This document shows positions 9,101-29,270 of a stretch of 64,000 nucleotides of DNA, in pieces; the first letter of the stretch is position 1; each line of letters opens with the position of its first letter. Made by a program: the position numbers and the translations under genes. The stretch is from contig CM000430.1 in the NCBI GenBank assembly GCA_000165345.1, forward strand, positions 480,001 through 544,000, read 5' to 3'. The notes under the pieces were generated by a model. The model made no database searches and was not told the DNA's origin. It saw only the letters and a list, made by a program, of their open reading frames with translations.

Positions 9101-10013
9101 GAGTAATTACAGTAAGCAAAACACATTATCTTTTGTACAAACAGAATCCAAGAGGATATATAATTTAGCAAATGTTTCAGAAAATGCTAGAACATGTAGG
9201 ATATGTGCTGTTGGAGATGGGGGGAATGATGTGGGAATGATTCAGGCAGCTGATATTGGAATTGGGATAGTTGGGAAGGAGGGGCAACAAGCAGCAAATG
9301 CAGCAGATATTAGTATACATGAATTTGCTGATTTAAGACCACTCTTTCTTTGGCATGGGCGTCATGCATATCAGAATAGTGCAAAGCTGGCGCACTTCGT
9401 GATTCATAGAGGATTAATTATTGCTTTCATGCAGTGCGTGTTTTCTGCACTTTTTTATTTTATTCCAGTAGCGCTTTTCCAAGGGTGGCTAGCGGTTGGT
9501 TACGCAACATATTATACAATGGCACCTGTATTCTCATTGGTTTTTGATGTTGATGTTAATAGGTCAACTGCTCTATTATACCCCGAGCTATATCGGCATT
9601 TGAAGGCTGGTCGAGTTATGTCAACAAAAACTTTTTTCTGTTGGGTCTGGAAATCATTATATCAAGGAACCGTAATTATGTTGGGAGCATTTGTACTTTT
9701 CAAAGATAATATCCTTATGAATCTTGTTGCAATTACATTCACGTCTTTGATACTATCAGAAATTTTAAATGTTGTTACCGAAATTCATTATTGGAATGAA
9801 GTCATAATATCATCTTGTATAATTTCAATATTAATTTATTTTGCATCATTTTTCCTCTTAGAGAGTCACTTCGATCTTCAGTTCATTTTTACCTTTATAT
9901 TTTGGGGTAAAATTTGTGTTCTCACCTCTATTTCATGGGGTCCAATACTTCTATACAAATTAATCAAGAAAACGATTCATCCCCCCAGATATTATAAGTT
10001 GATGCAACATTAG
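6138..10013 (+). CDS. P4-type ATPase (phospholipid-translocating flippase), Neo1/ATP9-like
   Basis: 1291 aa. P-type motifs DKTGTLT (phosphorylation site), TGDKLETA and GDGGNDVGMIQAADIGIGI. The P4-specific N-terminal motif CNQKYSLITFIPKVLFDQFSNFFNFFYL precedes TM1-2. Ten TM segments. An Asn-rich low-complexity insert lies between TGDK and GDGGND. Confidence 0.9.
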   Translation: MQKYEEKSPLIRTNKSSFSIFSFFNSLLFKPSLSYSERSIHLSGRTLPSKFVPNVVCNQKYSLITFIPKVLFDQFSNFFNFFYLIVALFQLIPELRTGPLFTYIAPLLLVLSITIGKEAIDDFKRYKRDKEFNNKKYRKITRNGIQEIRSSDIKVGDLIEINTNDRIPADILFLRTNDPTGTVFVRTDQLDGETDWKVKRALGITQHLETLDDIFSLEIIANIEGPKKDIYVFNGTIQYYEQNITSSFNPDDSGSFFNSQISVGNLSAANLEKNISEYGAGTAIQPVVEPLMLDNTIWANSVLTCGKIYGLVIYTGIESRSLMNTCTKSLRTKVGLLDNQVNTLSKILFLLLIITSFVLVFCKGFDTLWYVSFARFMLLLSSIIPISLRVNLEMAKIVFSSQINNDKNMKSVTVRSSIPEELGRIDYLLTDKTGTLTQNYMIVQTLHIGHAIFHQENFSEIVDALQYVQKGRVNIEKEERIIIDTMDNIPTFPIISSNPTIWNNSNNTLHLQNFMLGIALCHNIFPRSSIDANLSNENRNNSAEDILDNNLGSDECMVDLNQKHIVYQSSSPDEIALINFAASLGLRLVSRSNENMDLDLEKLYLGDHLRNSMESGLYKNEKNFPVRLSFKILACFPFCSSSKRMGILLEFKGRYIYFCKGAESVMIELLRQKGSGWLMEECTNLARLGLRTLVFSYKIISKEEYEVFNSVYSFPCTSLLQRDKNLNSSRKILESNMELLGLTGVEDKLQIDVPLTLEAFRYAGIKIWLLTGDKLETALCIAISAGLKPKYLNFYILESKYLKHNVNFTEKLLQVEELKYQLQRYINESANSNVLVVEGSILSLCIKYCPFLLIHAASLSPAVVWCRCSPSQKKDLVLLLKEYHLKYLKLCESNALISLDDLDSLSNKDLTYGQNDGESAKNRENSKTCSVKRRINEAKSGYNRNNNKNLNMFSFDELNSKSFGINNFPKLAESVGNIDEWGNDSGPMSNYSKQNTLSFVQTESKRIYNLANVSENARTCRICAVGDGGNDVGMIQAADIGIGIVGKEGQQAANAADISIHEFADLRPLFLWHGRHAYQNSAKLAHFVIHRGLIIAFMQCVFSALFYFIPVALFQGWLAVGYATYYTMAPVFSLVFDVDVNRSTALLYPELYRHLKAGRVMSTKTFFCWVWKSLYQGTVIMLGAFVLFKDNILMNLVAITFTSLILSEILNVVTEIHYWNEVIISSCIISILIYFASFFLLESHFDLQFIFTFIFWGKICVLTSISWGPILLYKLIKKTIHPPRYYKLMQH

Positions 10014-10789: not shown

Positions 10790-12235
10790 CTATAACAATC
10801 CTAATTTATTATTTTTTAATTCACTTAGTATCGACTTGTTCCAGTAAGGCCAATCTTCCAGGACTCTTGCAATATTTAAGTTTGTATTCTTAGCTATCCA
10901 ATCGGGCAAAACTTCGCATTTAAAAATCAAATATTTTTCGGTGGGTACACTAGGCGGTAAAATATATAATAATGAGTGAAGGCATATTCCTATTGGAGGT
11001 TCTACAAAATATTCGACATGTGCAAGTCCATCAGAGGAATCTAATGACATAGAACCACCTCCACCAAAGTACTTTTTTTGTAAAGGGAATTCTAATAGCT
11101 CTTCAACTTCTAGATCTTTTATGTTATATATACATCTAGCTGACAAATTTGAGTCCGTGAACTTAAAACTTGAGGTATTTAATTTAGTTCCTGGTAAAAC
11201 TTTATCACTATAAAGAATATCTCGAACGATAGGAAATCCAATATACTTCAAATGAGCCCTTATTTGATGTGTTCTTCCAGTAATTGGTTTACAAAGCAAA
11301 ATAGAATACTTATCTGTTTCATTTATTTTTTGTTTTTTTGCCTCGTTTATGTCCAAACATGAAATTAGAGGGAAAAAATATGTCAGAGAGTACTTACTAT
11401 TTTCTGAACTGTCGATTCTTGTTATTAATGATTCGCCTTCTCTGTCTTTTAACGTTTTAAGTCCAATCTCGCATTTGATTACATGGCTTGTGATTCCGTG
11501 TGATTCATCCAGAGATAGCTCCCTAATGCTCACGCCTTCAATGCTACTCTGGGAAATATGAGAAATAAAGTTTGAAGTGCTCTCATTTATCATAGCTAAA
11601 TAATATTTATGTGCAAACTGGACTTTTGATGATAAATTTTTAGTTGTTGAAGAATCTTTACTAAGCAATACAAGGCCAGATGTAACTCTATCAAGTCTAT
11701 TTATCGGATGAATATAAGTACTGTTAGTGTTCAATTTTGAAAGATATTCTGATTGAATTAATTTTGTAAGTGAAAGTTTATTGAACCTTCCTTGAGGATG
11801 GCATGGAATGCCACAAGGCTTAAAAACTGCCAATAAGGTAGAAGAATCATACAATATTTTAACTTTATCTATCGCAACAGGAAGTTCTATAAATAGCGAT
11901 CTGTGTTTAATTTTGTCACCATTGCGAACAATATAGTCTAATGAATTAACAGGTGTATCATTAACACTTAGTCTTCTTTGGTCGATTAATCTCAGGTATT
12001 CTTCTATAGGTCTGGTTCTAAACTCGTTCAGAAACAAGTCTCTTAAGGTTCTGTCTCTCCATCTTAATTTACAAAACGATTCGTATTCAAACATATATGG
12101 AGGAACAACAACGACGTAGTCTTCAACTTCTTTATCATTATAATTTTTTTTTATAATTTTTAGTGTTTTTGCATCACTGGACGAGATTTCAACATTCAAT
12201 TCACTATATATTGTAAAGGTGTTATTTGAATTCAT
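10790..12235 (-). CDS. RluA-family pseudouridine synthase
   Basis: 481 aa. Catalytic motif HPINRLDRVTSGLVLLSK (HRLD..TSG in RluA/RsuA enzymes) and the downstream ITGRTHQIRAHLKYIGFPIVRDILY block. N-terminal S4-like region. Confidence 0.85.
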   Translation of the reverse strand: MNSNNTFTIYSELNVEISSSDAKTLKIIKKNYNDKEVEDYVVVVPPYMFEYESFCKLRWRDRTLRDLFLNEFRTRPIEEYLRLIDQRRLSVNDTPVNSLDYIVRNGDKIKHRSLFIELPVAIDKVKILYDSSTLLAVFKPCGIPCHPQGRFNKLSLTKLIQSEYLSKLNTNSTYIHPINRLDRVTSGLVLLSKDSSTTKNLSSKVQFAHKYYLAMINESTSNFISHISQSSIEGVSIRELSLDESHGITSHVIKCEIGLKTLKDREGESLITRIDSSENSKYSLTYFFPLISCLDINEAKKQKINETDKYSILLCKPITGRTHQIRAHLKYIGFPIVRDILYSDKVLPGTKLNTSSFKFTDSNLSARCIYNIKDLEVEELLEFPLQKKYFGGGGSMSLDSSDGLAHVEYFVEPPIGICLHSLLYILPPSVPTEKYLIFKCEVLPDWIAKNTNLNIARVLEDWPYWNKSILSELKNNKLGLL

Positions 12236-16212: not shown

Positions 16213-16442
16213 TTCATACGCGCTTTTACGTACGTTTTTCATAACAATGTAATTTATGTTCTTTTCGAACAACCTAACTCAAATTTGAATTAACTTATTC
16301 ATTTCTAATATGTGAATTGAAATTAAAAACCTGAAATTTAATTTCTGCTTTGGAGCAGTTGTCAATTACTAGAGTAAAAAAAAATTAAAATCAGAATTTT
16401 TTGCCGCAATTAAAGTATAGAAGTCAATCAGAATTAACAAAA

Positions 16443-17861
16443 ATGAGTGAAAATGAATATAATGAAAAAGATAATCAGAATAATGGAAAAGAATTGGGAA
16501 CTAAAACTGAACAAAAAACTCAGCTTCTACTCGAAGAATCAGGTGTTTTAAATCTTGATAAACCTCTAAATGAGATAGAATCTATTGACAATAAACAAAA
16601 TAATAAAAAGAAAAAAAAGAAAAAGAAAAAAAAAGGAAAGGAAAACCTATACGAAGATAAAGATGATACTTATGATCCAGATCTTCCTACTTATTCAATT
16701 CCTATACAAGATAACACCCATCTGAGAAAAGTTTGCAACTGGCCAGCTATTGAATTTAGCAAACAAACATCTCCTCCAACTGTGCCTATAAATAAAATTT
16801 ACTCAAGACATGAATTTCCAGAGGGCGAAATAATTGAATATAATGGGCCTAACTCATATAGAATATCGTCTGAAGAATTAAAAGATAAAGAAAAACTCCA
16901 TATTTTGGACTACGCCTCTTTAAGAAGAGCAGCAGAGGTACATAGACAAGTTCGAAAATATATGCAGAGTATCATTCGACCAGAGATGAAACTTATAGAT
17001 ATGTGTAATATTTTAGAGAGTAAAGTGAAAGAATTAGTTGCTGCAGAAGGGCTCAAGTGTGGATGGGGATTTCCAACAGGATGTTCGCTTAATCATTGTG
17101 CGGCACACTACACTCCAAACCCCCATGACTTTACAAAATTAACCCAAGATGACATTTGTAAATTAGACTTTGGTGTACAGGTTAATGGAATGATAATTGA
17201 CTGTGCTTTTACCGTTGCATTCAATGATGTTTTTGACCCTTTAATTCAATCTACATTAGATGCAACAAATACAGGATTAAAAGTTGCCGGAATTGATGTT
17301 ATGTTTTCTGAAATAGGCTCAGCTATAGAAGAAGTCATTAAATCTTATGAATTTGAGTACAAAAGTAAGGTTTATAATATTAAACCTATTAAAAATCTAA
17401 ATGGTCATTCAATTCTACCATATCATATCCATGGAGGGAAATCAGTACCAATTATTGCAACAAATGATGACACAAGAATGGAGGAAAATGAAATATATGC
17501 CATCGAAACATTTGCAACCACTGGAAGAGGCTACGTTACAGAAGGGCTAGATTGTAGCCACTATATGAAATACTATGACAATCCCTTCCTAAACGAAAAT
17601 TCAACCAGACTTAATTCTGCTAAAATTCTTCTTGGTGGAATTAATACCCATTTCGGTACACTTGCGTTCTGTAGAAGATGGTTGGACCAATTAGGATTTA
17701 ATAAGCATGCACTAGCTCTTAAATCATTGGTAGACTCGGAAATCATTCGGCCGTATCCTCCATTAAACGACATTCCGGGTTCATTCTCCTCTCAAATGGA
17801 ACACACCATTTTATTAAGGCCTTCTTGTAAAGAGGTTGTATCTAGAGGTGATGACTTTTAA
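16443..17861 (+). CDS. MAP2: methionine aminopeptidase 2 (MetAP2, peptidase M24A)
   Basis: N-terminal poly-Lys block (KKKKKKKKKKKGKE), as in eukaryotic MetAP2. Conserved body FPTGCSLNHCAAHYTPN, DFGVQVNGMIIDCAFTV, HSILPYHIHGGKSVPI, AIETFATTGRGYV and C-terminus EHTILLRPSCKEVVSRGDDF. The first in-frame ATG is at 16443 (track start 16401 is a TTG). Confidence 0.9.
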   Translation: MSENEYNEKDNQNNGKELGTKTEQKTQLLLEESGVLNLDKPLNEIESIDNKQNNKKKKKKKKKKGKENLYEDKDDTYDPDLPTYSIPIQDNTHLRKVCNWPAIEFSKQTSPPTVPINKIYSRHEFPEGEIIEYNGPNSYRISSEELKDKEKLHILDYASLRRAAEVHRQVRKYMQSIIRPEMKLIDMCNILESKVKELVAAEGLKCGWGFPTGCSLNHCAAHYTPNPHDFTKLTQDDICKLDFGVQVNGMIIDCAFTVAFNDVFDPLIQSTLDATNTGLKVAGIDVMFSEIGSAIEEVIKSYEFEYKSKVYNIKPIKNLNGHSILPYHIHGGKSVPIIATNDDTRMEENEIYAIETFATTGRGYVTEGLDCSHYMKYYDNPFLNENSTRLNSAKILLGGINTHFGTLAFCRRWLDQLGFNKHALALKSLVDSEIIRPYPPLNDIPGSFSSQMEHTILLRPSCKEVVSRGDDF

Positions 17862-19104
17862 GTAGTTGGTTCTCTTTTACTAGGTTTAGCTTTTTAATAT
17901 CATTCACAATAATGAATTTCAACGTCTAAGTTTTTGAAAGCTAACCCAAATTGACTATTTAGAATTGAAATGAATAACTATTTGCTTTATTGCGTTCTAT
18001 TGACTATTATACGTATTATATTTGAACCGAGTGTTCGAAATGTCGAGCAAATAAAAATTTGCAACTTGCTTCCTCTCACTATAACTGTCTCAATTACCAT
18101 TTTTTTATATTTAATATTCTGTTTCTTATAGAAAGGCCCTTTAATATGAGCAATTAATTACCACTTCAAATAGAAATTTTTTTCAATTAAAATTCTGAAA
18201 AAATACAAAGAATACAAAACTTTCAAATGTGAAGTTATTTAGAAATGTTAAATGATGAAGTATTCTTAATTATTGTTTTATATCTTAGTATAGGAAATAA
18301 TTTTAGAAATAAGAATTAGTATGGAAAATATTTAATCACTTGTGAGAGTGGTTTTAGGGAATTATTAGTTCATTAAAGATTAAAAAATAATAATTGTTCA
18401 ATTTAAAAACTAGAAGTGTTTATCTAATAATTCAAAATTGGGATTATACTTTTGGTTCCAGGAATAATAAAAATTTGGTGTTGAAACGGTCATATCTTTG
18501 ATATTAATCATTTTAATATAATTTGGAGAATGCTACGAAATATTAATATAGATTTTGTCCTGCAATAAAAAGTTATTAACTCTAAGCAATATAAGCCATG
18601 AATGTCAATAATGAAAAAAAAAATTATCAAAAAAACTCGATATTTGACTCTACGAAATCAAACTGTATAAAGACTGTTCAATAAAATTCTTTTCAAATAT
18701 TTCTTTCAAGCTATTTTCTTTCAATTTAAATATTTTAGAAATACATGAGATTTGGTATTAATAAATTATAAAAAGGTATTCGGACCAAAATTATCTAAAA
18801 AAGTATTGAAAAACAACACCGTTACTTCTAACCCAATATTGTACGGCACAAATTTAGAAATGAAAGGTTTTTAATGTGTAATAAAGAATTTTATAATTTA
18901 CAAAAGTCCTAAATAAGTTTAGTTTGATTTTGAAAGAAGTATTTTTAAAAAATTAGATAAAAAATAAAGAAACTCATACCAGATATAACAAATTAACTTT
19001 TGGTTCAAGTTGAATATTATATGAATAGCATAAACCGTTTTAATGAAATGTTTAAAATTCAAATAATTAACTAAATGTTTGAACTTAAATTTTTTTTTTA
19101 TTTA

Positions 19105-20010
19105 TTATTTCCAAAAAAATGTTATGAAACATAATATTGGGGAAAGAAGCATGATAATAAAAGTTGCAATTAAAAAAACAATTCCTTTGTTTATTTTCCC
19201 ATAATCCGCAAATACAAGTGGGTCTTTTGGGTCAAGCTCCCAAAGTAAATCTATAATTCCGACCCCAATCCCCTGAATTTGGAACTTTGTGATGAGATAA
19301 ATGTATTTAAGCGCAATTTTTCTGACTAAGGATTCAAAGACGCTTAGTCTTTGTTTAGACGATAAATTTAAGTTTTCTTCTATATAAACTTCGGGTAATC
19401 TGTAAAACTTTGCAACTTTTGTTATCAGGTTTATGTAATTTTCACTAGGAAGTGCTGGACTAATTTTTTTAGATGATTTACTTAATTCTGTTAAATATGT
19501 ATAATTTGAAAAATCATCTTGTTTTTCCAACAAAAAATCAGTAAATGTACTATCAAATATCATATTTGAAGTTTCTGTGAAAAATGTCATAACTTTTAAA
19601 TCAAATGAACTCTGATTTTTTGATTCACGAATTCCTGAATTAGAAAATAGCATGTTTTTCTGTGAATTTTTTCCAGAATTCTCAAAGTTTAACTTAATTA
19701 TTACGGCATTTGTTTCAATTAAAAGGTTATTTGGTAAATACTTGACGTATTTCCTGATCATTTTTTTTTCGTAACTATTTATTTCAATAATTACTCCATA
19801 AGTTGCCGTATTTAACGAAGGCGTCAACGTTGGTCTCGTTCTACAACAAAATGGTAAACCTTTTGCAATCCAATTAATTTTGAAATTATCAAGTCTTCCT
19901 ATTCCAAAAAGCCTAAACTCAACGTTTGGAAAACATTGCTTGAATTCGAATGGGTCCATTAAGTGGTCATAAATGAATAAAAATGTCATACCTAAATCAA
20001 TTAATTTCAC
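19105..20010 (-). CDS. hypothetical protein; N-terminus weakly resembles the GGCT/AIG2-like fold; C-terminal TM helix
   Basis: 301-aa ORF. The N-terminus LFIYDHLMDP...FRLFGIGRLDNFKINW...YGVIIEI loosely follows the GGCT pattern (YGSNL...DFKLDF...VWGVV). C-terminal hydrophobic IVFLIATFIIMLLSPILCFITFFW. The family assignment is speculative. Confidence 0.45.
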   Translation of the reverse strand: MKLIDLGMTFLFIYDHLMDPFEFKQCFPNVEFRLFGIGRLDNFKINWIAKGLPFCCRTRPTLTPSLNTATYGVIIEINSYEKKMIRKYVKYLPNNLLIETNAVIIKLNFENSGKNSQKNMLFSNSGIRESKNQSSFDLKVMTFFTETSNMIFDSTFTDFLLEKQDDFSNYTYLTELSKSSKKISPALPSENYINLITKVAKFYRLPEVYIEENLNLSSKQRLSVFESLVRKIALKYIYLITKFQIQGIGVGIIDLLWELDPKDPLVFADYGKINKGIVFLIATFIIMLLSPILCFITFFWK

Positions 20011-20473
20011 ACATTAAATTGCATTTTGTCCAAAAAAATTTGTTAAAGTTATACCGCCAAAAATGTGGGTAAAATGTAACTAATCTGTTGAAATTATAGG
20101 AAAAATAATTTATTTTTGAAAGTTTTGATCATATGATTATAACTATTTGCTTCACATGAAGGATATATATTTGTCATCTGTCTCAAACTCCAAAAAAAAT
20201 GTTGAATATTCAATAGGGAGATCTCAATTAAAGGTAAGACTAAATATTTAGAGTCTATTAATTATCAAAATAACCTTAACTTAATCACGTATCCTCATTC
20301 ATACTTATTAGGACGAAAAAATTGTTAAATGTTGTGAGGTTAATCAAATTCATGAAAGGTCAAATATCTACTCTAACGTCAATTATTTTAGAAATAGACA
20401 TTTACAACGATATCAAGTAATAGAATATTTATTAATTAAGCACAAATCATTTACATTCTATGTCAAAAATAAA

Positions 20474-21904
20474 GTGAAAACTAATGAAATATTGTTAGAT
20501 AAAATTGGAAATGAGTTCATTGGAGAAATCGGCATAGATTTGGATATTGAAAAGTCTAAATTCGTTGTTTATCCATTAAAGCATGTAATCTCTCTTAGCG
20601 AACAGGTAACCACTTTAGGGATGCTAATAAGTAACGGAGAGGGTCAAATATTAATAGAAGATCCAACTCATAGAGTTAAAATTGTTACTTCAAGCAAGAC
20701 CTTATTTGGCAAAGGTATTTATTGTTTTAACCATTTCGTTATTGCAAGAGGCAAAATGAATAAAATAACTCAGAGTTTTCATGTGGACCTGATGTTCCAT
20801 CCTCCAATCCAAAATATTGATAAAAATGTAGCAAATGAAATTCTATCCAATTTATTTTCAGGCATAAATTATACTTTATTAAAATCTGAAGATAGAGAAA
20901 AAAATATCAAAAATCAAAGCTTAAACAAAACAAAATTTTTTAGAACTACAAAATATTTGGAAGATTTAAAGATTAAAGTTCAGGTATCGAAAAATGATTA
21001 TTGGGTAATTTTTTCAGATATTATGTTAACAAGCATGAGGGTAATTGAAAATTTACGTAAAGTGTTTTCTGGTTATGAAAAAATGATTAAAGACTCAAAC
21101 ATTAATATAGGATTTATTTTATTAGGCAATTTTATTAATATCGACTTTGATAAGAATGGAGAAGATTGGATGGAAGATAAAACTTGTGTTGAAAATGATC
21201 ATAATTTTAGCAACGTAAATGAAAAAGGAAGATCTAAGAGTCTATCTATTTTTAACTCAAACTCACGTGAAAATCATTTTAAAAATTCTCAAAACAATTT
21301 CAATACAACGAGAAAAGGTTTTGAAGGATTCAAAAATGTTCTGAAAGAATTTCCAGTGTTGCTTTCAAACTGCAATTTCTTCATTATTTCTGGTCCAAAT
21401 GATATTGGGCCCGATTTACTTCCTAAACCCCCCCTTTCTAATTACTATGCATCATACTTATCTAAAGTATTTCCAGATTCGAAAATTCATTTTCTTTCGA
21501 ATCCATCTGTTATCGATGATAGTGATATTAAGATGTTTTGTTCAAGGTATTCTCTAACTAAAGAACTTAAGGAAAAGACTTTATTTTCTTACTGTGGTAC
21601 AAAAGATATGGGTTTCACAACCCAATGGAATATTGAACCTGAAACTTTAGAAAACATTATACCACAAACTGTGTTAGGCCAACAACACTTAACTCCAACA
21701 AGTTCCAATGTCATGCCAAATCTAGATTATTTCTTATTTTTACTACCAACCCCAAAAATATTAATTATTGGCGATTCCAGTCCAAGCTACTCAGTCAAAT
21801 CAATAAACCAAACTTGGATAGTGAATCCAGGGTCTTTTAATAACACATGTTCATGGGTCCAGTATAATGTTTTAACTGATTCAATTGACCATGTATGGTT
21901 GTAA
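20474..21904 (+). CDS. DNA polymerase epsilon subunit B (POLE2/Dpb2 family); main exon, N-terminus probably on an upstream exon
   Basis: OB-fold region (VYPLKHVISLSEQVTTLGMLISNGEGQILIEDPTHRVKI) followed by the inactive phosphoesterase domain (YWVIFSDIML....GFILLGNFI....FIISGPNDIG....NPSVIDDSDIKMFCSRYSL), typical of DNA pol alpha/epsilon B subunits. The frame is open back to 20252 without an ATG. A candidate upstream exon is 20156..20233 (MKDIYLSSVSNSKKNVEYSIGRSQLK), with a GTAAGA donor at 20234 and an in-phase AG acceptor at 20439..20440. Confidence 0.75.
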   Translation: MKTNEILLDKIGNEFIGEIGIDLDIEKSKFVVYPLKHVISLSEQVTTLGMLISNGEGQILIEDPTHRVKIVTSSKTLFGKGIYCFNHFVIARGKMNKITQSFHVDLMFHPPIQNIDKNVANEILSNLFSGINYTLLKSEDREKNIKNQSLNKTKFFRTTKYLEDLKIKVQVSKNDYWVIFSDIMLTSMRVIENLRKVFSGYEKMIKDSNINIGFILLGNFINIDFDKNGEDWMEDKTCVENDHNFSNVNEKGRSKSLSIFNSNSRENHFKNSQNNFNTTRKGFEGFKNVLKEFPVLLSNCNFFIISGPNDIGPDLLPKPPLSNYYASYLSKVFPDSKIHFLSNPSVIDDSDIKMFCSRYSLTKELKEKTLFSYCGTKDMGFTTQWNIEPETLENIIPQTVLGQQHLTPTSSNVMPNLDYFLFLLPTPKILIIGDSSPSYSVKSINQTWIVNPGSFNNTCSWVQYNVLTDSIDHVWL

Positions 21905-21968: not shown

Positions 21969-24263
21969 TTATGAATATATTCTTTCATTATTTTCTTGAT
22001 TTTTTTTACGCAAATTAATAATTGAAATTCCTGCATATCTTCCTAAACTCATGATTGTATAGACAGGATTAATTCTTGGCAATATTTTTAAAAGAGACGC
22101 ATCAACAATACCTAAGTTTCTTGTGCCTGATAATAAAAACGATTCATTTTCCACAAGCTCTCCCAATGGAACAGATCCTGACCAATGCCAAATACTTGTT
22201 CCTATATTGTAAGCTAATCTTAAAATTTCGTCTTTATTCGAAAGATCTGGAAGTATTGGAGGGAATGTTGCAATTTTCTCAAATATTATGTTTTTGCTTT
22301 CAAGACAATCCCTTGGGTCAGAAACTCCGTTACATTCATCTGGAAATATTGAATTTTTATAATTGAGTATGATGTTATAAACATTTTCAAGCTCATCCAT
22401 AAAATCTGGAGATAGTGGCTTGTTTATAAATAATCTCTCAGTTCTTGCAGATGCAAGCACGCCAATTATGCCATTCAATACTGTCATAGGGCATGAAGAG
22501 TATCCTCCTTGTTCTGCAATATTTTGAAATCTTCCTGACCTTAGCATCTTTATCACAGAACTAAGTCCAATTATTACGTTTTCTCTATCTTCTTCTTCCG
22601 ATAAATATTTCCCATCTAATTCAAATTTTCCATCACTTTTTACACTTATTCCCCCCCTGCTTTTAGGTTCAGATGTAAAATAAAAAACAGCAGCAGATCT
22701 CCTTAGACATTCTAAAGGATACTGTAAAATCAGACAAATTGGTATTCCTCCACTTAATGGGTAATTTTCTGCGCATTTTTTGAATATTTCAATCACAAAA
22801 TCCGTAACAATATTATTCCTAAGTCTTGGAGGGAAAATAAGTCTTGTAGCATATAATGTGCCTTCCACAGTTCTTCCTCCTCCCAAAGACTCGATATTAA
22901 TAGTACTGCAGCTATATCCGCAATTTCCAGAAGTTTTTGAAAAACTTGACATGATTGGGTTTACGAAAGGGTTAGTAAAAACATCACTTTTGAAAAAAAA
23001 TGGAATTGCAAATAACAATCTATCGACGATATTTGTTCCCAAATTTGGAACTTCTAGCAATGGCATTATATTCATATTTTGTAGAGATTCAAGAGGTCCT
23101 ATCCCGGACTTATAAAGTAATACAGGGGTATGGATTGCCCCTGATGATAGTATTATCATTCCATTGTCATTTAAACAAATTCTTTTGGCAAAGATACTTC
23201 GAATTAAGTCTTTAGAAGGTTTTATACCGTCCTCAATACCAAATTCATTGGCCAGTTTTCCTGCAGTTATATTAAAAAATGGGTATTCAAAGTCAGAATA
23301 TTGATTTTTTAACATAACTCTTTCTAAAATAATACATTTTGCATTTAAAACACTTTTACTAGAAAGTGCCGATTGAAAACCCATTTTATTATAATTAAAT
23401 TTTCCTCCTAAATTTGCATTCCTTAAAAATGGAAAACCTGTGCTTTGAGTTTTGTTTCCTCTAATCTCTCTCTGTCCTTCGATTTGTTCAAACTCTACTT
23501 TTGTTACAAGATGGTTTGTTAAAATATCAACAGGACTTGTTTCAATGACCGTATTATTTTTGGCATTTTGATAATCAGAAAGTAAGATATCTGATGACAT
23601 TCTGAAACCGTGGTCACTTACATTAAATAGATTGTATACTCTCCAAGTTCCGTTTATTCTATTTAAGCTGAATTCTGAGTTCGGGTTTTTTTCTGTCACA
23701 AATCCAATATCTTTAAATGCATTCTCCATAGGTTCAACAATTGGGAGATCCTGATCGCCTTTATTACTAACTCTATTTACAATCCAATCATAACTCTCTT
23801 TCAAAATGGTTTTGTTAAAACTAGCTCCTGAATTTTCTTCTAAAAGTTTGAAATATTCTGGATTTTCTTCCATGATCATTCCCATATTTATTGCTGTCCC
23901 ACCTCCTAATACATTTCCAATATGAGTTCTTATTCCCTGTTTAGTAATAACAAGTTCGCTAACTTTTTTGTCATCCACAACACTTCCCATTCCTTTTATA
24001 TCACGAGTAAGTATTGATTCATCTAGCCTAGCACCTCCTCTTTCTACAAGCAAAACAGAGTATTTCGAGTCAGCAAGAGTTCTAGCTAATGCGCATCCTG
24101 CAGCCCCACCCCCAACTACTATATAATCATAGCTAGATTTAATATTCCTCGATCCAGTTATGATTCTTTTAGGTAAAACGAAAGCTCTCGCACTTATTTT
24201 TTCAAAAATACGAAGCGCATTTAGTGAAAATAATAATAAAGTGAAATATAAAATATTTTTCAT
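21969..24263 (-). CDS. secreted GMC-family oxidoreductase (FAD-dependent; choline dehydrogenase/glucose oxidase-like)
   Basis: 764 aa. N-terminal signal peptide MKNILYFTLLLFSLNALRIF. Rossmann FAD motif YDYIVVGGGAAGCALARTLADS. C-terminal GMC_oxred_C signature HWSGSVPLGE....NLGIVDASLLKILPRINP. The oxidoreductase body is uninterrupted. Confidence 0.85.
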   Translation of the reverse strand: MKNILYFTLLLFSLNALRIFEKISARAFVLPKRIITGSRNIKSSYDYIVVGGGAAGCALARTLADSKYSVLLVERGGARLDESILTRDIKGMGSVVDDKKVSELVITKQGIRTHIGNVLGGGTAINMGMIMEENPEYFKLLEENSGASFNKTILKESYDWIVNRVSNKGDQDLPIVEPMENAFKDIGFVTEKNPNSEFSLNRINGTWRVYNLFNVSDHGFRMSSDILLSDYQNAKNNTVIETSPVDILTNHLVTKVEFEQIEGQREIRGNKTQSTGFPFLRNANLGGKFNYNKMGFQSALSSKSVLNAKCIILERVMLKNQYSDFEYPFFNITAGKLANEFGIEDGIKPSKDLIRSIFAKRICLNDNGMIILSSGAIHTPVLLYKSGIGPLESLQNMNIMPLLEVPNLGTNIVDRLLFAIPFFFKSDVFTNPFVNPIMSSFSKTSGNCGYSCSTINIESLGGGRTVEGTLYATRLIFPPRLRNNIVTDFVIEIFKKCAENYPLSGGIPICLILQYPLECLRRSAAVFYFTSEPKSRGGISVKSDGKFELDGKYLSEEEDRENVIIGLSSVIKMLRSGRFQNIAEQGGYSSCPMTVLNGIIGVLASARTERLFINKPLSPDFMDELENVYNIILNYKNSIFPDECNGVSDPRDCLESKNIIFEKIATFPPILPDLSNKDEILRLAYNIGTSIWHWSGSVPLGELVENESFLLSGTRNLGIVDASLLKILPRINPVYTIMSLGRYAGISIINLRKKNQENNERIYS

Positions 24264-24403: not shown

Positions 24404-25184
24404 CTATGTTATTGAAATAATAATAAAAGTTAAAGAAAAAAATATGATACTCATTAAAAATAGTATTGTTGTATGAAAAAATGATATATTTGAATTTTTT
24501 ATAAATTTTTTCATATCTTGGATTGATTTTTGCGTTTTTTCTGAATTTACAGCTTGCTCTTTCTCTAAAATAAATAAGACCTAAAAACTATTATTTTTCT
24601 TTTCAAATTTAAGGAGAAAAACTTACTTTTTTTTCACTTCTAAGTAATTCTTGAAATCTGAATGCAGAGCACTTCATTTCTTCAGCTAGTTCAACCAATT
24701 CATCTTTGAATCGCTCATTTATAACTTTTATATCAAGCCTATTATCAATATTTTCTGGTTTCAAATTATTTTTCGAAGTAGGTGGCAATTCTAAACTATG
24801 CTCTGCAAATTTAGTTGAATTACTTTCAAGATATTCATAAATATTTTTGTTTGGCTTCAAATGTGAATATAAATTTTTGATATTTTGGGGTTGATTTTCA
24901 TCTCCTAATAATTCTAGATTTAGCTTATCTTCCAATTTCAATTTTAATATCTCTATTCTTCCAAGGTAATCATCTTGCAGTTCTTTATTGCCGCTAATTT
25001 GGAGCTTGACAGACTCAAGAGAGTGTAATATCTTTTTGTATGCAATAATATTAATTATGCTTTTGTCAAATGTTACAAGCATTTCTGAACAGTTAGTTCC
25101 GAATGCATATTCTAAAAATTTATCTTCTTCAAGTACACATTCAATATTGTATAATAGTACATTAGACCGGTGCATAATATTCAT
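24404..25184 (-). CDS. tail-anchored coiled-coil protein (SNARE-like), 2 exons
   Basis: Exon 1 is 25184..24627. The intron 24626..24581 (46 nt) runs from GTAAGT (directly after ...RSEKK) to TTTTTAG. Exon 2 is 24580..24404 and encodes VLFILEKEQAVNSEKTQKSIQDMKKFIKNSNISFFHTTILFLMSIIFFSLTFIIISIT, a C-terminal TM anchor. Without splicing the ORF ends at ...KKVSFSP and lacks the anchor. Confidence 0.6.
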
Positions 25185-25417
25185 GATATCTCGGTTACAT
25201 AATAGCCATAGTTTATCAATTTATAGAATATTTAGCAAATATTGTTAATAGGAAACATTTATTCATATATCTAATTTAACCGCCCTAATCAATTTATTTA
25301 AAATAATATTCTAATTTCAAGCAAGAAACTCAATTCCACACCTTTTACATAGTAATGAGGGAAAATTGTGTGTTTTAAGGAAAGAATGCAGGCTCAAGCT
25401 ATTACAAATAGATAGTC

Positions 25418-26140
25418 ATGAAAGTTAAATCAACCTTTATTTTGCTAATTTTTACTCTTAATTATCTCACATCTTATTGTTCATTAAGGAATACTAATGG
25501 TGTAAGTACATAAATAAAAAAATTATTAATTATTTGTAACATTTTATTAGAATGGAAACAAATTAGTTGAAATACTTGAACCAAAGGAAATGAACAACGT
25601 AAGAGATAATTTTCAAAAGTCGAATAATAATTTTGAGCTTTTAGGTAACTTCTGCATTGAGAATCTTTCCTTTTGTTTACTATGGATATATTTCAAGGCT
25701 CAGTTTAAGTAATTTAGATAGCAATATAGTGGAAAGAAGGCTAGAAGAATTATATCCTTTTTTGCAGAAAATAGCCTGCACTGCTTTGAATTGTTTAAGT
25801 ATGTTTAACTAAATTTACACAAATAGTAACACTCAATCTCACAGTGATCTTTAATCCTATTCCCGGCTCAGCTATGACAGTTTCCGCTCTTTCATGTAAG
25901 TGGAATAAATAAAGAAAATAATTTATAATTGCTTTAGGGATTCTTTCATTTTCAACATTGAGCAATAGCGTATTACCTTACTTGTTACAATACGCAACGG
26001 GTCTTCCTCAAGCACTTTACTTTTCTTTGCAAATTTCCGAATTTCAGATAATTACTTCACCTGTCAGCCTAGTTAAAGAGGGAGATGTAAGTCGGAACAC
26101 GTCTTTTTTTTTTCGAATCTAGAACAGAGCTAATAATTGA
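25418..26140 (+). CDS. candidate intron-dense small gene (signal peptide protein, 6 exons), provisional model
   Basis: This 1.3-kb stretch has no ORF of 60 aa or more but holds five consecutive canonical short introns, each restoring frame. Exons: 25418..25501 (MKVKSTFILLIFTLNYLTSYCSLRNTNG), 25551..25598, 25645..25798, 25845..25895, 25938..26086, 26123..26140. Introns: 25502..25550, 25599..25644, 25799..25844, 25896..25937, 26087..26122 (36-49 nt; donors GTAAGT/GTAAGA/GTATGT; acceptors YAG preceded by T-rich tracts and TAAC-like branch motifs). An alternative last acceptor at 26145 would extend the protein through 26316. Confidence 0.35.
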
Positions 26141-26526
26141 TGCAGATATTTGGAAAACTAATTTCCCATAGGGATGGAGATAATGCTATACATGATCTAC
26201 TAGTTTCTCCATGTGATGGCGTTTTGCAATATGTTTGGCCAAATGTTTCAACACCTACTGTTGCTTTCATGCTAATTGCAAGGATTCAATGTAATTTGAA
26301 AATACAAGGATAGTGAGGCAGATTGAAATATCTTAATACTAAATAAATTATAATAGTTTGATAATTATCAAACACGCTTTTTCTAAATTGTTCATATTAC
26401 AAGAAAATGACGTCATCATATTTGATTATTAGATCAAAAGGCGGCTTGAATGCACGCAAAATCCCCACTGAGCGTTTTGATGTTTTCTAAATCAAATTTG
26501 TAGAAATTGAGAGAATTTATGTAAAT

Positions 26527-27555
26527 ATGCAGATTAATTACCTAATTTTTTCTGTATTTTCTGCGTTACTTCTTGGGTTAAATAGTCCAGTATACGCAAT
26601 AACTACTGAGTCAAATGAATATGTTGCTAACACCAAAAGCAAATCTAGAAATAGACTTAGAAGATTTTTGGATAGTTTAAATAAAGTGGAACTCAAGCTT
26701 CCCAAGATAACCAGAAAAAATGTGATTAGTGAATATACTGTTGAGGATTTAGTCTCAAAGTTGCGAGAAATAGAGAAAACAAGAAGTAACACAAAAAATC
26801 CATTCAAGAAAATAAGATGTCTCATTCAAGAGTCAAATATTAAGAAAAAAATCAGTTCATTACTTAAAGAAAAGAGTGAAGAAGAAAAGTTCGAAAAGTT
26901 TGAAGAAGAATTTCCAATGGATTATTCTCCAAAGGCATTATCTGAAGAGGGGTCTATATCGCCCTATATCCCAGTAGTTGTTGAAGACTACAAGGACGTA
27001 GAAGTTGCGTCAGGAGCATCTATTAGAAATGAGGGAATTCAAGACGAGATTAAATATCTGACATCGGAGGATACTGATCAATCGACTAGTGGAGAGTTGG
27101 ATGATTTGGCACATCCAATTACATCAGAAACTGGCAATGAAAATGAAGGCACTGAAGATTCCGTTACGGAAGACTTTGAAAAAAAGGAAGTTGTAGAAGA
27201 CAATTTGGAAGACTATCAAGCCAAAGATGTGGATGGTGAAAGCCAGTCAAACGAGAATGGGCAGCAAACAGATTCAGATCTGCAAGAAAACGCAGATAGA
27301 GGAGAAAAAGACAACATTCAAAGCAAGGCAAGATTAGCGAACATTTTTAAAAGAAAAAAGTTAACTGCTTCCGAAAAGCTTGAAAGATTAATGTCACTTA
27401 AAAAAGATATTGAAAGCAGGATTTCTAGTTCTAAGAGTAAACTCCTTAGAAGAGTTTTGGAAATGAAACTTAAAAGAGTGAATCACAAGATTTCTAAAAT
27501 AACAGATGCGGCTGTAGATACAGTTACTGAATCAGGCGAGATTGACATCGAATAG
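26527..27555 (+). CDS. secreted acidic low-complexity protein (signal peptide; contains an SKSR tetrapeptide)
   Basis: 342 aa. Signal peptide MQINYLIFSVFSALLLGLNSPVYA. Mature part is Glu/Asp/Ser/Lys-rich and includes ...NTKSKSRNRLRR.... Reminiscent of Cryptosporidium SKSR-type secretory proteins, but the family assignment is uncertain. Confidence 0.6.
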   Translation: MQINYLIFSVFSALLLGLNSPVYAITTESNEYVANTKSKSRNRLRRFLDSLNKVELKLPKITRKNVISEYTVEDLVSKLREIEKTRSNTKNPFKKIRCLIQESNIKKKISSLLKEKSEEEKFEKFEEEFPMDYSPKALSEEGSISPYIPVVVEDYKDVEVASGASIRNEGIQDEIKYLTSEDTDQSTSGELDDLAHPITSETGNENEGTEDSVTEDFEKKEVVEDNLEDYQAKDVDGESQSNENGQQTDSDLQENADRGEKDNIQSKARLANIFKRKKLTASEKLERLMSLKKDIESRISSSKSKLLRRVLEMKLKRVNHKISKITDAAVDTVTESGEIDIE

Positions 27556-27908
27556 GTCCTATCATACATATACACCGCTATTAACTAAAACTGCACGAGG
27601 AAAGTATACTTTATTACATAAATCAACAGTTATAAAAAAAATAAAATCGATTTAGATCTGATTTGAAAATAACTGCCGACAAGTTAAAAACAGGCTTTTA
27701 AGACCTAAAGGATTTAAGACTAAATGAGACATTTAAATGGCAAGATATTTAGGTAATATGATAGAGAAATACACTGCATTTATTCTGTTCTATAGTAAGA
27801 TTCTGGTATTATTAGATTTAAATCTTGCACCACGTCTTGTCTAAGAGATACCTCTATTTTTTTTTTGTACACAAAATATTAAGAGAATTATTTCTTGATT
27901 TATTCACA

Positions 27909-28412
27909 ATGTTTAAACTATTTAGTTGTTTGTGCTGTCAAAATGTTGACTTGAATGAAGAAAGGTAAGTCATATTTGACAGTTTAGATGAATTTATATC
28001 TTTTTTTACAGAATGGACACAAGATTATTCACAAGGTTTCCTTCAACGTATCATCTTAGGACTCTTTTTGACGAATATGTAAGTTTTCCTATTCAACATT
28101 ATATAAAGTAAGTCTAATTATTGGTAGAGCTTAAATGGATCAGATATTTCTGAAGGAAGCGAAGTTGGAGATAATCATGAGTGTCAAAATGAAGATCGTC
28201 TAGAAATGATTGTTGAAGAAGATAATGAATTTTTAGAAGATGGACTTTATGATAGAAATTCTCTAAATGCGAGTAGGAAGGTCACTGAAAAAAGTGAAGT
28301 TGATGTAATGAACATAAACAGCAATAGAAGTTCATTGAACACAAACTCTGGATCTAATACGAATCGATCAAAGCAATCGAAGAGGAATAAAAGGAGGAGC
28401 TACAGGAAGTGA
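27909..28412 (+). CDS. small protein with N-terminal Cys cluster (MFKLFSCLCC) and basic C-terminal tail, 3 exons
   Basis: Exons 27909..27964, 28012..28078, 28128..28412. Introns 27965..28011 (47 nt, GTAAGT..TTTACAG) and 28079..28127 (49 nt, GTAAGT..TTGGTAG). The unspliced frame hits TAA immediately after exon 1. The splice joins the frame to track ORF 28206..28412. C-terminus SKQSKRNKRRSYRK. Confidence 0.5.
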
Positions 28413-28571
28413 ATATCGCTTATCCAAGAGTATGCTGAAGATTTGCAATAAATAAGCGGTTGGCTAATTGCAATGTAAATTTCTTATTATACAGATTAAC
28501 GCGCTTAGAAAGCTGATAAATGTTGTAAATAGTTAGGTTTGTAAAAATAACTAAAAAATATTGACACTGCA

Positions 28572-28877
28572 ATGAACTCAATAAAGTTATTAGTAGAGTC
28601 ATTCATAAGTTCAGGAGATATCTGTGTTATATCGAAGAGTTATTGCCCATACTGCATAAAAGCAATCAATAGCTTGAAAAGCGCTGGATATTCACCTTTG
28701 GTTATGCAAATCGACGGTAGAGTAGATACTAAAGAAATTCAAGATTACTGTAGGGAGCTAACTGGAAGTGGAACTGTCCCAAGAGTATTTGTTAAGGGAA
28801 GGTTTATAGGAGGATGTGATGATACCCTGAAGCTGTTAGAAGACGGCTCATTGAGTAGTTTTGTTGAAACGATCTAG
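28572..28877 (+). CDS. GRX: glutaredoxin (dithiol, CPYC active site)
   Basis: 101 aa. Active site SYCPYCIKA, GSH-binding TVPRVFVKGRFIGGCDD, Trx-fold length. Confidence 0.9.
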   Translation: MNSIKLLVESFISSGDICVISKSYCPYCIKAINSLKSAGYSPLVMQIDGRVDTKEIQDYCRELTGSGTVPRVFVKGRFIGGCDDTLKLLEDGSLSSFVETI

Positions 28878-29048
28878 GCACCTTAATTTGTTTTTTTCTT
28901 CATACTTGTAACAGTATTTTTGCTCAATTGCGAATTGTGCGTTGTATAGCAAAAATGTCTAATTAATACAAATTTAACTTTTGTTTATTTCTATCCATCC
29001 CACTACCAAGATATTTGCAAGATCAAGGAGCCGCGCATTCACTGTGGG

Positions 29049-29055
29049 GCATGCA
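29049..29055. promoter_or_regulatory. GCATGCA box about 215 bp upstream of the 1869-aa gene
   Basis: GGGGCATGCAATTCGG, in the GC-richer island GGAGCCGCGCATTC. Confidence 0.35.
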
Positions 29056-29270
29056 ATTCGGATATGCTTAATGGCGAATAATTTGAGGATTTCTTTAAGA
29101 CGTATATATTCTTTATTTTTATTACATTGTAAAGGGTGTTATATTTCTCTAAAAACGCACATTAATTACATGCACATTACAAATTAAGTCTGCGAAGCTT
29201 TAATTTTTTGCGATTAAGAAGATCTCCAATTGTGGTCTAACTACAGTAATAAATTTTGCAGATTTAACGA

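Follow-up and report, generated by a model that had tools for sequence, protein, structure and literature searches.

The open reading frame analysed here, which lies within a 64,000-nucleotide stretch of contig CM000430.1 (the window), is the Cryptosporidium parvum gene cgd2_2510. It probably encodes a secreted, alcohol-oxidising GMC flavoenzyme that was inherited vertically within an apicomplexan and chromerid family and that serves in construction of the oocyst wall. Secretion, redox activity and the role in the wall are what we infer, unlike the identity, fold, motifs, distribution and female transcription of the gene. The gene is already annotated and its superfamily is already known; the listing of cgd2_2510 among female-gamete genes and the tie between its Eimeria relatives and oocyst-wall formation are likewise known, and the locus is an ordinary feature of the genome. 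What changes is the evolutionary reading: a candidate for recent horizontal transfer is removed and replaced by an apicomplexan and chromerid family with a possible deeper "green" affinity.

The gene is a single uninterrupted frame from ATG to stop that specifies 764 amino acids. EAK88750.1, the annotated cgd2_2510 protein of C. parvum Iowa II, was 100% identical to the translated frame over 100% of its length, and CPATCC_000681 was a further 100% match. Because the annotated protein is identical end to end, cgd2_2510 contains no intron. The GC content was 0.325 and GC3 was 0.21, in line with GC3 values of 0.22-0.29 in neighbouring ORFs, which upholds the description of the composition as host-like in the earlier note. 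The order of genes (GMC, DNA_pol_E_B, an ORF of ~300 aa and Peptidase_M24) was the same in C. andersoni, and this conserved synteny is contrary to recent transfer. Contamination as the source of the gene was rejected on composition, synteny and the chromosome-scale contig, in agreement with what the earlier note had proposed. The features of the gene and its product are collected in Table 1.

Table 1. Features of cgd2_2510 and its predicted product, with positions in the window.
Feature	Position	Strand	Evidence
Complete single-exon CDS of cgd2_2510 (EAK88750.1)	21969..24263	-	ORF listing and identity to annotated protein
Putative signal peptide, residues 1 to ~25 (MKNILYFTLLLFSLNALRIFEKISA)	24189..24263	-	Hydrophobic segment, model, homologs
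FAD-binding beta-alpha-beta unit, residues 44-76	24036..24134	-	Pfam, alignments, model
Best-scoring GMC_oxred_N stretch, residues 45-196, including GGGTAINMG with N126	23676..24131	-	Pfam, alignments
Cryptosporidium-specific insertion 1, residues 265-301, predicted disordered	23361..23471	-	pLDDT <50, alignment
Low-confidence insertion 2, residues 329-350	23214..23279	-	pLDDT <50
Second GMC signature region (SSGAIHTPVLLYKSGIG), residues 373-389	23097..23147	-	Pfam, PDB matches, alignment
Clade-specific expansion of the substrate-binding domain, residues 430-530, with C452, C497, C510 and C519	22674..22976	-	Alignment
Clade-specific helical expansion, residues 575-670, with C591	22254..22541	-	Alignment, model
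GMC_oxred_C match, residues 673-741, holding His693, Asn732 and D721	22041..22247	-	Pfam, structure-sequence alignments

With Pfam PF00732 and PF05199 (CAZy AA3-type) as the reference for the GMC superfamily, both domains scored above their gathering thresholds: GMC_oxred_N at 46.9 bits against a threshold of 23 (E 3.9e-12) and GMC_oxred_C at 36.3 bits against 24.6 (E 9.9e-9). The Pfam matches to GMC_oxred_N, DAO and NAD_binding_8 all began at the beta-alpha-beta unit, where the GxGxxG motif reads GGGAAG (residues 51-56, window 24096-24113) and is followed downstream by E74-R75-G76 (ERG) of the same fold, in which E74 is the acidic residue expected ~20 positions after the motif. G51, G53, G56 and E74 hardly varied across two alignments (93 and 144 sequences), and the pLDDT of the model exceeded 90 in this unit. 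The second signature region formed the second GMC_oxred_N stretch and was also the best stretch of many PDB matches; P380, S386, G387 and G389 were invariant in 93 aligned sequences. The codons of the predicted catalytic pair were checked and correspond to 22185-22187 for His693 and 22068-22070 for Asn732. In residue-by-residue alignments these two positions fell on His459 and His497 of almond hydroxynitrile lyase (1ju2) and on the His and Asn of the Picea alcohol oxidase PaAOX1 (8s2y). Of the 37 sequences in the apicomplexan clade defined below, 35 carried H693 and 34 carried N732. The full GMC architecture that had been read from the sequence is thus confirmed by the two domains, the GGGAAG motif and the His693/Asn732 pair.

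An AlphaFold model built from an 11-sequence apicomplexan alignment was unusable (pLDDT 54), and an AF2 model from a 93-sequence alignment that included plant homologs was used instead (pLDDT 83.3, pTM 0.85). This model predicts the two-domain GMC fold, with one FAD-binding and one substrate-binding domain. Foldseek returned 274 PDB matches for it at E <= 0.001, and the top 50 were all GMC enzymes, the best being Prunus hydroxynitrile lyases and PaAOX1 (E ~5e-33, target TM 0.82-0.84). The N-terminus consists of MK, NILYFTLLLFSLNAL and a polar stretch ending in ISA/RA, and hydropathy identified it as the only strongly hydrophobic terminal segment of the protein. Inspection by eye and hydropathy were the sole basis for calling a signal peptide, with a putative cleavage somewhere between about residues 16 and 27; in the model, residues 17-38 form a low-confidence linker after an N-terminal helix. 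A comparable hydrophobic stretch is present in most family members, and the paralog of cgd2_2510 carries the database labels "secreted" and "signal peptide-containing". The predicted leader suggests that cgd2_2510 is secreted, and it agrees with the domains, motifs and fold in supporting the name of secreted GMC oxidoreductase first given to this gene.

Prunus hydroxynitrile lyases were the top structural and near-top sequence matches, and models of the C. hominis paralog are annotated accordingly, so that a non-redox hydroxynitrile lyase has to be considered. We regard this function as extremely unlikely for cgd2_2510, since Asn732 occupies the position of almond His497, the general base of the lyase active site, and the majority of plant HOTHEAD-like clade members likewise have Asn there. 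To our knowledge, hydroxynitrile lyase activity of this type is a specialisation of Rosaceae only, and we know of no cyanogenic glycoside metabolism in apicomplexans. Identity as a hydroxynitrile lyase was rejected on the replacement of His by Asn732.

GMC oxidoreductases had been described in the earlier note as uncommon in apicomplexans, a view that the distribution of the family does not support. Full-length members were present in every Cryptosporidium species sampled, in Gregarina, Blabericola, Selenidium and Rhytidocystis, and in Eimeria, Besnoitia (4 copies), Neospora, Cardiosporidium and the chromerid Vitrella (3 copies). Among the alveolates, this distribution by named taxa covers Apicomplexa and chromerids. 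An exhaustive profile search of representatives ranked ~35 full-length, single-stretch representatives of the family above the plant matches; these were recovered by the exhaustive search, whereas a profile search with a word index found no additional apicomplexan members.

We defined a six-cysteine HOTHEAD-like clade by C310, C363, C497, C510, C519 and C591 together with three expansions (segments 308-375, 414-535 and 559-693), and on its sequence cgd2_2510 is placed within this apicomplexan and chromerid clade. cgd2_2510 carries the complete pattern, CCCCCC, as do 28 of 37 clade members, and the majority of the remaining members are partial sequences; the pattern occurred in 0 of 34 plant-clade sequences. 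C497, C510 and C519 were kept in 95-97% of the apicomplexan clade, C591 in 92% and C452 in 78%, and each was found in 0% of plants. Median segment lengths in the apicomplexan clade and in plants were 73 and 30 residues for segment 308-375, which contains insertion 2, 134 and 67 for segment 414-535, and 187 and 63 for segment 559-693. The model places helices at residues 591-608, 619-639 and 650-656 of the last expansion. Insertion 1 is narrower in its distribution. The segment that holds it (221-308) is 87 residues long in cgd2_2510 relative to a median of 38-41 in other groups, and the insertion found counterparts in the alignment solely among sequences from other Cryptosporidium, both intestinal and gastric.

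Relationships were examined by neighbour joining (NJ) on a 433-column alignment, in which partial and long-branch sequences left the deep nodes weak (9-62 of 200 bootstraps). Because of this low support, explicit groupings of named taxa were tested instead. The named alveolates of the main clade clustered without plants in 196 of 200 NJ bootstraps, and in 183 of 200 when Rhytidocystis and the second C. parvum paralog, cgd8_2670 (EAK89454.1, "secreted glucose methanol choline like oxidoreductase"), were included. Plants were monophyletic, with all named alveolates outside, in 200 of 200 bootstraps. A HOTHEAD-like superclade of plants, alveolates and protist or metagenome sequences stood apart from other GMCs in 185 of 200, while the branching order inside the apicomplexan/chromerid clade was poorly resolved by NJ bootstraps. 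The alveolate sequences fall outside the plant HOTHEAD-like clade; cgd2_2510 resembles that subfamily and is not a member of it.

These groupings bear directly on the horizontal acquisition that the earlier note had suggested, that is, recent transfer with bacteria, fungi, insects or plants as donors and with Cryptosporidium, or a narrow lineage of apicomplexans, as recipient. The best non-alveolate matches are plant HOTHEAD-like and mandelonitrile-lyase-like proteins, and C. hominis paralog models bear the name "(R)-mandelonitrile lyase", both of which point toward such a transfer. It is nonetheless highly improbable, given orthologs and paralogs that extend from Cryptosporidium and gregarines to coccidia, Cardiosporidium and Vitrella, clade cysteines and insertions that are missing in plants, and alveolates that group with one another and are not nested within the plants. 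The neighbour-like composition and the synteny kept within the genus argue in the same direction, and cgd2_2510 is absent from the C. parvum candidates for horizontal or endosymbiotic gene transfer (HGT/EGT) of Huang et al. 2004. Orthologs with a vertical phylogeny, which had been named as the finding that would speak against acquisition, are largely what we see for Apicomplexa and chromerids; what may survive of the idea is a much older origin in an algal lineage.

Such an origin would involve an ancient transfer, endosymbiotic or horizontal, of the alveolate HOTHEAD-like clade from green or other algae into the apicomplexan-chromerid ancestor or earlier, followed by vertical inheritance and by loss in lineages without resistant walls. 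We consider this a tenable minority possibility. Within the superclade, plant HOTHEAD-like GMCs are the nearest neighbours of the alveolate clade as a whole, and a Chromera velia GMC transcript, JO803246, was classed as "green" with a support of 0.99 (Burki et al. 2012, PMC3516247); the three Vitrella paralogs suggest that this transcript belongs to the same subfamily as cgd2_2510. However, the alveolates are not nested within plants, the NJ tree and its 433 columns leave the deep nodes weak, and the data fit just as well with an ancient eukaryotic family that was lost patchily, because two intermediate clades lack an organism assignment and one of them contains, in a 90% cluster, an MMETSP marine-protist transcript. 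A search with an alignment of the intermediate clades returned mostly orthologs of the Cryptosporidium chromosome 8 paralog and generic GMCs. The question of ancient transfer concerns origin and is compatible with the function that we favour for cgd2_2510.

cgd2_2510 is already known as a female-gamete gene. In published RNA-seq, its log2 CPM rose from 4.14 in asexual stages to 9.52 in females from culture and 10.70 in females in vivo (Tandel 2019, PMC6877471 supplement 4), and the LogFC of females versus asexual stages was 5.38, an increase of ~40-fold in female gametes (Tandel 2019, PMC6877471). The same study pairs cgd2_2510 with the E. tenella gametocyte gene ETH_00031405 in OG5_156113 (PMC6877471 supplement 6). 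In the literature searched there was no main-text mention of cgd2_2510 and likewise nothing specific for cgd8_2670. Searches for "glucose methanol choline like" and for GMC oxidoreductase with Toxoplasma gave nothing specific, and HOTHEAD was combined with oocyst in no paper of the literature searched. Expression confined to females would equally fit a function in the zygote or sporozoite instead of the wall.

A housekeeping GMC enzyme unrelated to the wall, for example a betaine-producing choline dehydrogenase or a sugar oxidase, is very unlikely, even though the best NCBIfam match was a choline dehydrogenase subfamily model (E 2.8e-22) and some database names read "alcohol oxidase 2". Scores were 79 against a curated cut-off of 605 for PRK02106, 50.8 against 732 for BetA and 62 against 387 for MftG. 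The secretory-type leader, the clade-specific cysteines and the strongly female-biased transcription also argue against a housekeeping enzyme, as do the Eimeria homologs tied to gametocytes and wall-forming bodies. Identity as a BetA or mycofactocin MftG equivalog was rejected, the scores being far under the curated cut-offs.

If cgd2_2510 is a secreted alcohol-oxidising enzyme of the wall, its N-terminal leader would send the protein through the female gamete's secretory pathway and FAD would be held non-covalently in the Rossmann-type N-domain. The substrate would pass a hydride to the flavin, its hydroxyl becoming a carbonyl, while His693 acts as the catalytic base and Asn732 as the partner of His693, and the flavin would be re-oxidised by O2 to yield H2O2, or by another acceptor. 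The enzyme would thereby take part in building or hardening the oocyst wall. At only ~18-30%, identity to characterised enzymes is insufficient for naming a substrate. By analogy to HOTHEAD and PaAOX1, it might oxidise hydroxylated acyl or glycerol moieties in the acid-fast lipid layer, to which we assign a modest chance, and we give the same weight to a function that consists mainly in supplying H2O2 for oxidative cross-linking; the rest of the probability falls to some other wall substrate. Supply of H2O2 for dityrosine formation in particular is weakened because Cryptosporidium walls are reported to be without dityrosine (PMC3760245).

The oocyst wall is the basis of the resistance of Cryptosporidium to chlorination. 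Since cgd2_2510 and cgd8_2670 are both female-induced and their nearest characterised relatives act in the plant cuticle or make apoplastic H2O2, they are plausible, genetically testable candidates in the wall lipid process, and they could be transmission-blocking targets. [quoted passage not shown] A more specific and rather doubtful proposal is that the six-cysteine clade is the functional counterpart of plant HOTHEAD and oxidises acyl or glycerol hydroxyls for a cutin-like wall lipid. A secreted flavoenzyme with an old affinity to the algal lineage would then let the acid-fast lipid of oocyst and chromerid cyst walls polymerise or become anchored, and there would be two female-specific copies because the wall relies on a lipid layer, without glucan or dityrosine. 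If this were true, cgd2_2510 and cgd8_2670 would be entry points to the chemistry of the chlorine-resistant wall.

Among known relatives, cgd8_2670 is like cgd2_2510 in its GMC architecture and in starting with a hydrophobic leader, retains four of the six signature cysteines, and is likewise female-specific (LogFC 5.84; Tandel 2019, PMC6877471). The two proteins share 27.7% identity over 386 aa, cgd8_2670 is shorter (698 aa), and it belongs to a different subclade with Rhytidocystis and protist or metagenome sequences of ~600 aa. No E. tenella partner is given for cgd8_2670 in the Tandel tables (PMC6877471).

The gametocyte GMCs of Eimeria (ETH_00033360, ETH_00031405 and EnOXIO1/XP_013435736.1) are assigned to the same apicomplexan GMC family as cgd2_2510: a homolog from E. 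stiedai scored 913 bits against the family profile, and OG5_156113, the group that connects ETH_00031405 to cgd2_2510, is an OrthoMCL group. ETH_00033360 of E. tenella was up 475-fold in gametocytes (PMC4345034), and a GMC oxidoreductase of E. necatrix was detected in proteomics of wall-forming bodies and the oocyst wall (PMC10729351). The Eimeria proteins and cgd2_2510 have in common expression in sexual stages and a proposed role in the oocyst wall. They differ in that the Eimeria proteins are longer (~940-1060 aa) with extra insertions, that Eimeria walls contain dityrosine-linked tyrosine-rich proteins in contrast to those reported for Cryptosporidium (PMC3760245), and that localisation to wall-forming bodies is reported for Eimeria only, namely for E. 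necatrix EnOXIO1 as cited in PMC10729351.

The closest non-alveolate sequences are the plant HOTHEAD-like GMC/AA3 enzymes (Arabidopsis HOTHEAD, PaAOX1 8s2y, and the Prunus lyases 1ju2, 3red and 5eb4), which also provide the closest solved structures (E 2.5e-35 to 8s2y). HOTHEAD acts on omega-hydroxy fatty acids and PaAOX1 on glycerol. The plant enzymes are secreted, and the HOTHEAD-like proteins and PaAOX1 have the same His/Asn pair as cgd2_2510, while the plant lyases have His in place of Asn732. PaAOX1 is a secreted, H2O2-producing oxidase with this His/Asn site (bioRxiv 10.1101/2025.01.06.631446). Compared to cgd2_2510, the plant enzymes are only ~18-30% identical, are ~520-600 aa long and have neither the six clade cysteines nor the three expansions. 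Fungal and bacterial GMC oxidases (choline oxidase 2jbv, aryl-alcohol oxidase 3fim, alcohol oxidase 5hsa and glucose oxidase 1gpe) share the two-domain fold and have the catalytic His at the same position as cgd2_2510, but with Foldseek E values of 1e-24 to 1e-27 and ~14% identity they stand further away, and they lie outside the HOTHEAD-like superclade that includes both cgd2_2510 and the plant enzymes.

The gene at 21969-24263 is cgd2_2510, already known and annotated in C. parvum and located on chromosome II according to its accession series. Its single uninterrupted ATG-to-stop ORF encodes 764 amino acids, 100% identical over the whole length to the Iowa II protein (EAK88750.1 / CPATCC_000681); the gene has no intron, since the annotated protein is this uninterrupted ORF itself. 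Both GMC domains passed the Pfam curated thresholds (GMC_oxred_N, 46.9 bits, E 3.9e-12; GMC_oxred_C, 36.3 bits, E 9.9e-9). In HMMER alignments, His693/Asn732 line up with His459/His497 of the almond hydroxynitrile lyase 1ju2 and with the corresponding His/Asn of the alcohol oxidase 8s2y. cgd2_2510 has the fold and the intact FAD and catalytic motifs of the GMC family behind a secretory-type leader, which fully bears out the sequence observations of the earlier note.

Features of the cgd2_2510 region (window positions)
Feature	Position	Strand	Residues	Remark
GMC protein cgd2_2510	21969-24263	-	1-764	
GGGAAG dinucleotide-binding motif	24096-24113	-	51-56	
ERG			74-76	after GGGAAG
His693, C-terminal catalytic pair	22185-22187	-	693	codon verified
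Asn732, C-terminal catalytic pair	22068-22070	-	732	codon verified
Insertion	23361-23471		265-301	rich in N, K, G; predicted disordered
Insertion	23214-23279		329-350	rich in N, K, G; predicted disordered
Syntenic flanks of GMC gene	16401-21904 and 24609-34880			C. andersoni counterpart LRBS01000121.1
P4-type phospholipid-translocating ATPase (flippase)	6138-10013	+		
Pseudouridine synthase	10790-12235	-		
M24 metallopeptidase	16401-17861	+		
1869-aa ORF	29271-34880	+		

The N-terminus consists of MK, NILYFTLLLFSLNAL and a polar stretch ending in ISA/RA. It is the sole hydrophobic terminal segment, as judged from hydropathy, and a comparable leader is present in most homologs. We infer secretion from this leader, the cleavage site being uncertain. 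Composition was host-like, as previously claimed: GC is ~30% throughout the window, and the GC3 of cgd2_2510 (0.21) is like that of neighbouring ORFs (0.22-0.29).

An AlphaFold2 model built on a 93-sequence alignment gave a pLDDT of 83.3 and a pTM of 0.85; its low-confidence parts were the post-leader linker (17-38) and the two insertions. The first insertion was seen only in Cryptosporidium sequences and bears an N-glycosylation sequon, N270-K-T. The best PDB matches by Foldseek were hydroxynitrile lyases from Prunus together with the alcohol oxidase PaAOX1 of Picea abies (8s2y; E ~5e-33, target TM 0.82-0.84), followed by choline, alcohol, aryl-alcohol and glucose oxidases. PaAOX1, a plant enzyme of family AA3, is described as secreted and as forming H2O2 when it oxidises glycerol; it carries Asn525 at the position of aryl-alcohol oxidase His546 (bioRxiv 10.1101/2025.01.06.631446). 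Its His/Asn arrangement is that of cgd2_2510. The lyases, in contrast, have His where cgd2_2510 has Asn732, and a lyase function is therefore unlikely. BetA and MftG were rejected as identities, the NCBIfam equivalog models scoring far below their cut-offs. Identity to characterised enzymes (18-30%) is too low for a substrate to be assigned.

The earlier note raised possible horizontal acquisition, which orthologs across alveolates with a vertical phylogeny would contradict. Orthologs of 53-99% identity were found throughout Cryptosporidium (C. tyzzeri, meleagridis, hominis, ubiquitum, canis, felis, bovis, ryanae, andersoni, serpentis and chipmunk genotype). When 1.84 billion representative sequences were searched exhaustively with the family profile in HMMER, ~35 clusters (50% identity level) matched it full-length in one stretch (250-1070 bits); plant-type matches came in 3 or 4 separate stretches at <250 bits. 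The members that could be named were Cardiosporidium cionae, Besnoitia besnoiti (4 paralogs), Neospora caninum, Eimeria stiedai, Gregarina niphandrodes (3), Gregarina sp. Poly1, Blabericola migrator, Selenidium pygospionis, Rhytidocystis pertsovi, several more transcriptome assemblies and the photosynthetic chromerid Vitrella brassicaformis (3 paralogs). None of the matches that could be named was haemosporidian or piroplasm. One member, XP_028344104.1, is labelled Physeter catodon (sperm whale); it resembles a Besnoitia paralog most closely, with 52% identity across 436 aa, and is probably coccidian (sarcocystid) contamination of the whale assembly.

Six cysteines (C310, C363, C497, C510, C519 and C591) are common to the apicomplexan/chromerid group in an alignment of 147 sequences, being 86-97% conserved within it and found in 0/34 plant-clade sequences; this pattern would fit oxidising surroundings, whether extracellular or luminal. 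Three segments are expanded relative to plants (medians of 73 vs 30 residues for 308-375, 134 vs 67 for 414-535 and 187 vs 63 for 559-693). In an NJ tree of 144 of these sequences (433 columns, Kimura distances, 200 bootstraps), the named alveolates of this main clade grouped to the exclusion of plants in 196/200 replicates and all named alveolates in 183/200. Plants and Cryptosporidium were each monophyletic in 200/200, while order inside the alveolate clade was poorly resolved. A HOTHEAD-like superclade of plants, alveolates and other sequences stood apart from other GMCs in 185/200.

C. parvum shares the order GMC / DNA_pol_E_B / ~300-aa ORF / Peptidase_M24 with its distant congener C. andersoni, in a block that also takes in a ~1860-aa ORF beyond GMC and small ORFs between. 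Neither the ~300-aa nor the ~1860-aa ORF had Pfam hits. The latter, 1869 aa in the window (no family at E <= 0.001) and 1861 aa in C. andersoni, is large, conserved and functionally uncharacterised. The flippase, pseudouridine synthase and M24 metallopeptidase are ordinary housekeeping genes flanking the region. The GMC models of C. andersoni and C. serpentis (987-988 aa) carry a ~220-aa N-terminal extension without a hydrophobic leader, and the C. andersoni gene range (LRBS01000121.1:7001-10284) exceeds its CDS length; their 5' ends are probably mis-modelled, with a spurious exon or intron.

Because distribution, shared cysteines and expansions, tree and gene order place orthologs across alveolates, at least in Apicomplexa and chromerids, recent horizontal acquisition is rejected on these comparisons. 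The clade lies closest to plant HOTHEAD-like GMCs, and a Chromera GMC transcript was scored 'green' by Burki et al. 2012 (PMC3516247); the family may thus stem from an ancient transfer out of an algal lineage, although no nesting of alveolates inside the plant clade was seen. An ancient eukaryotic origin followed by losses is equally likely.

A second C. parvum paralog, cgd8_2670 (EAK89454.1; 698 aa, chromosome 8), annotated 'secreted glucose methanol choline like oxidoreductase' and conserved genus-wide, is very divergent (27.7% identity over 386 aa). It groups not with cgd2_2510 but with Rhytidocystis and ~600-aa protist/metagenome sequences, in an adjoining clade with the same cysteine pattern, one 90% cluster of which contains an MMETSP transcript. 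The ~600-aa members (P0166-P0171, P0184, P0194, P0200, P0223, P0248) come from metagenomes and marine-protist transcriptomes (Logan, JGI or MMETSP) and are key to the age of the six-cysteine family.

Transcription of cgd2_2510 is female-specific: it rises from 4.14 log2 CPM in sorted asexual stages to 9.52 in cultured and 10.70 in mouse females (LogFC 5.38), and that of the strongly female-specific cgd8_2670 from 5.21 to 11.05 and 11.16 (LogFC 5.84; Tandel et al. 2019, PMC6877471, supplement 4). Both are in the stage-wise top-500 expressed-gene file (supplement 7), and OG5_156113 pairs cgd2_2510 with the E. tenella gametocyte gene ETH_00031405, in a row without a P. berghei column (supplement 6). 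The same study reported enriched redox genes and a set of 69 female-biased genes, probably for oocyst-wall synthesis, the majority of them with a predicted signal peptide. In Eimeria, gametocytes of E. tenella show a 475-fold increase of the GMC oxidoreductase ETH_00033360 (PMC4345034), and an E. necatrix one was detected in a wall-forming-body/oocyst-wall proteomic study, which cites EnOXIO1 as localised to wall-forming bodies (PMC10729351).

The modest interest of cgd2_2510 lies in this possible oocyst-wall link. In the macrogamete the protein would be routed into the secretory pathway. There it may oxidise an alcohol group, passing hydride to FAD while His693 acts as the base, partnered by Asn732; O2, yielding H2O2, or a different acceptor would then re-oxidise the reduced flavin. 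Wall assembly may benefit from this reaction. The Eimeria literature favours oxidoreductases feeding peroxidase-driven dityrosine cross-linking, but Cryptosporidium walls are reported to be without dityrosine (PMC3760245) and without glucan. They reportedly rely instead on an acid-fast lipid layer, and how this layer is composed and put together is still given as unknown (PMC12548878). An attractive alternative may be that the substrate is a lipid or polyol of the wall. No paper linking HOTHEAD to the oocyst was found in the literature searched. The appeal of a lipid or polyol comes from the nearest characterised relatives, which are plant enzymes: HOTHEAD is tied to cuticle formation, with omega-hydroxy fatty acid oxidation proposed as its reaction, and PaAOX1 acts on glycerol.
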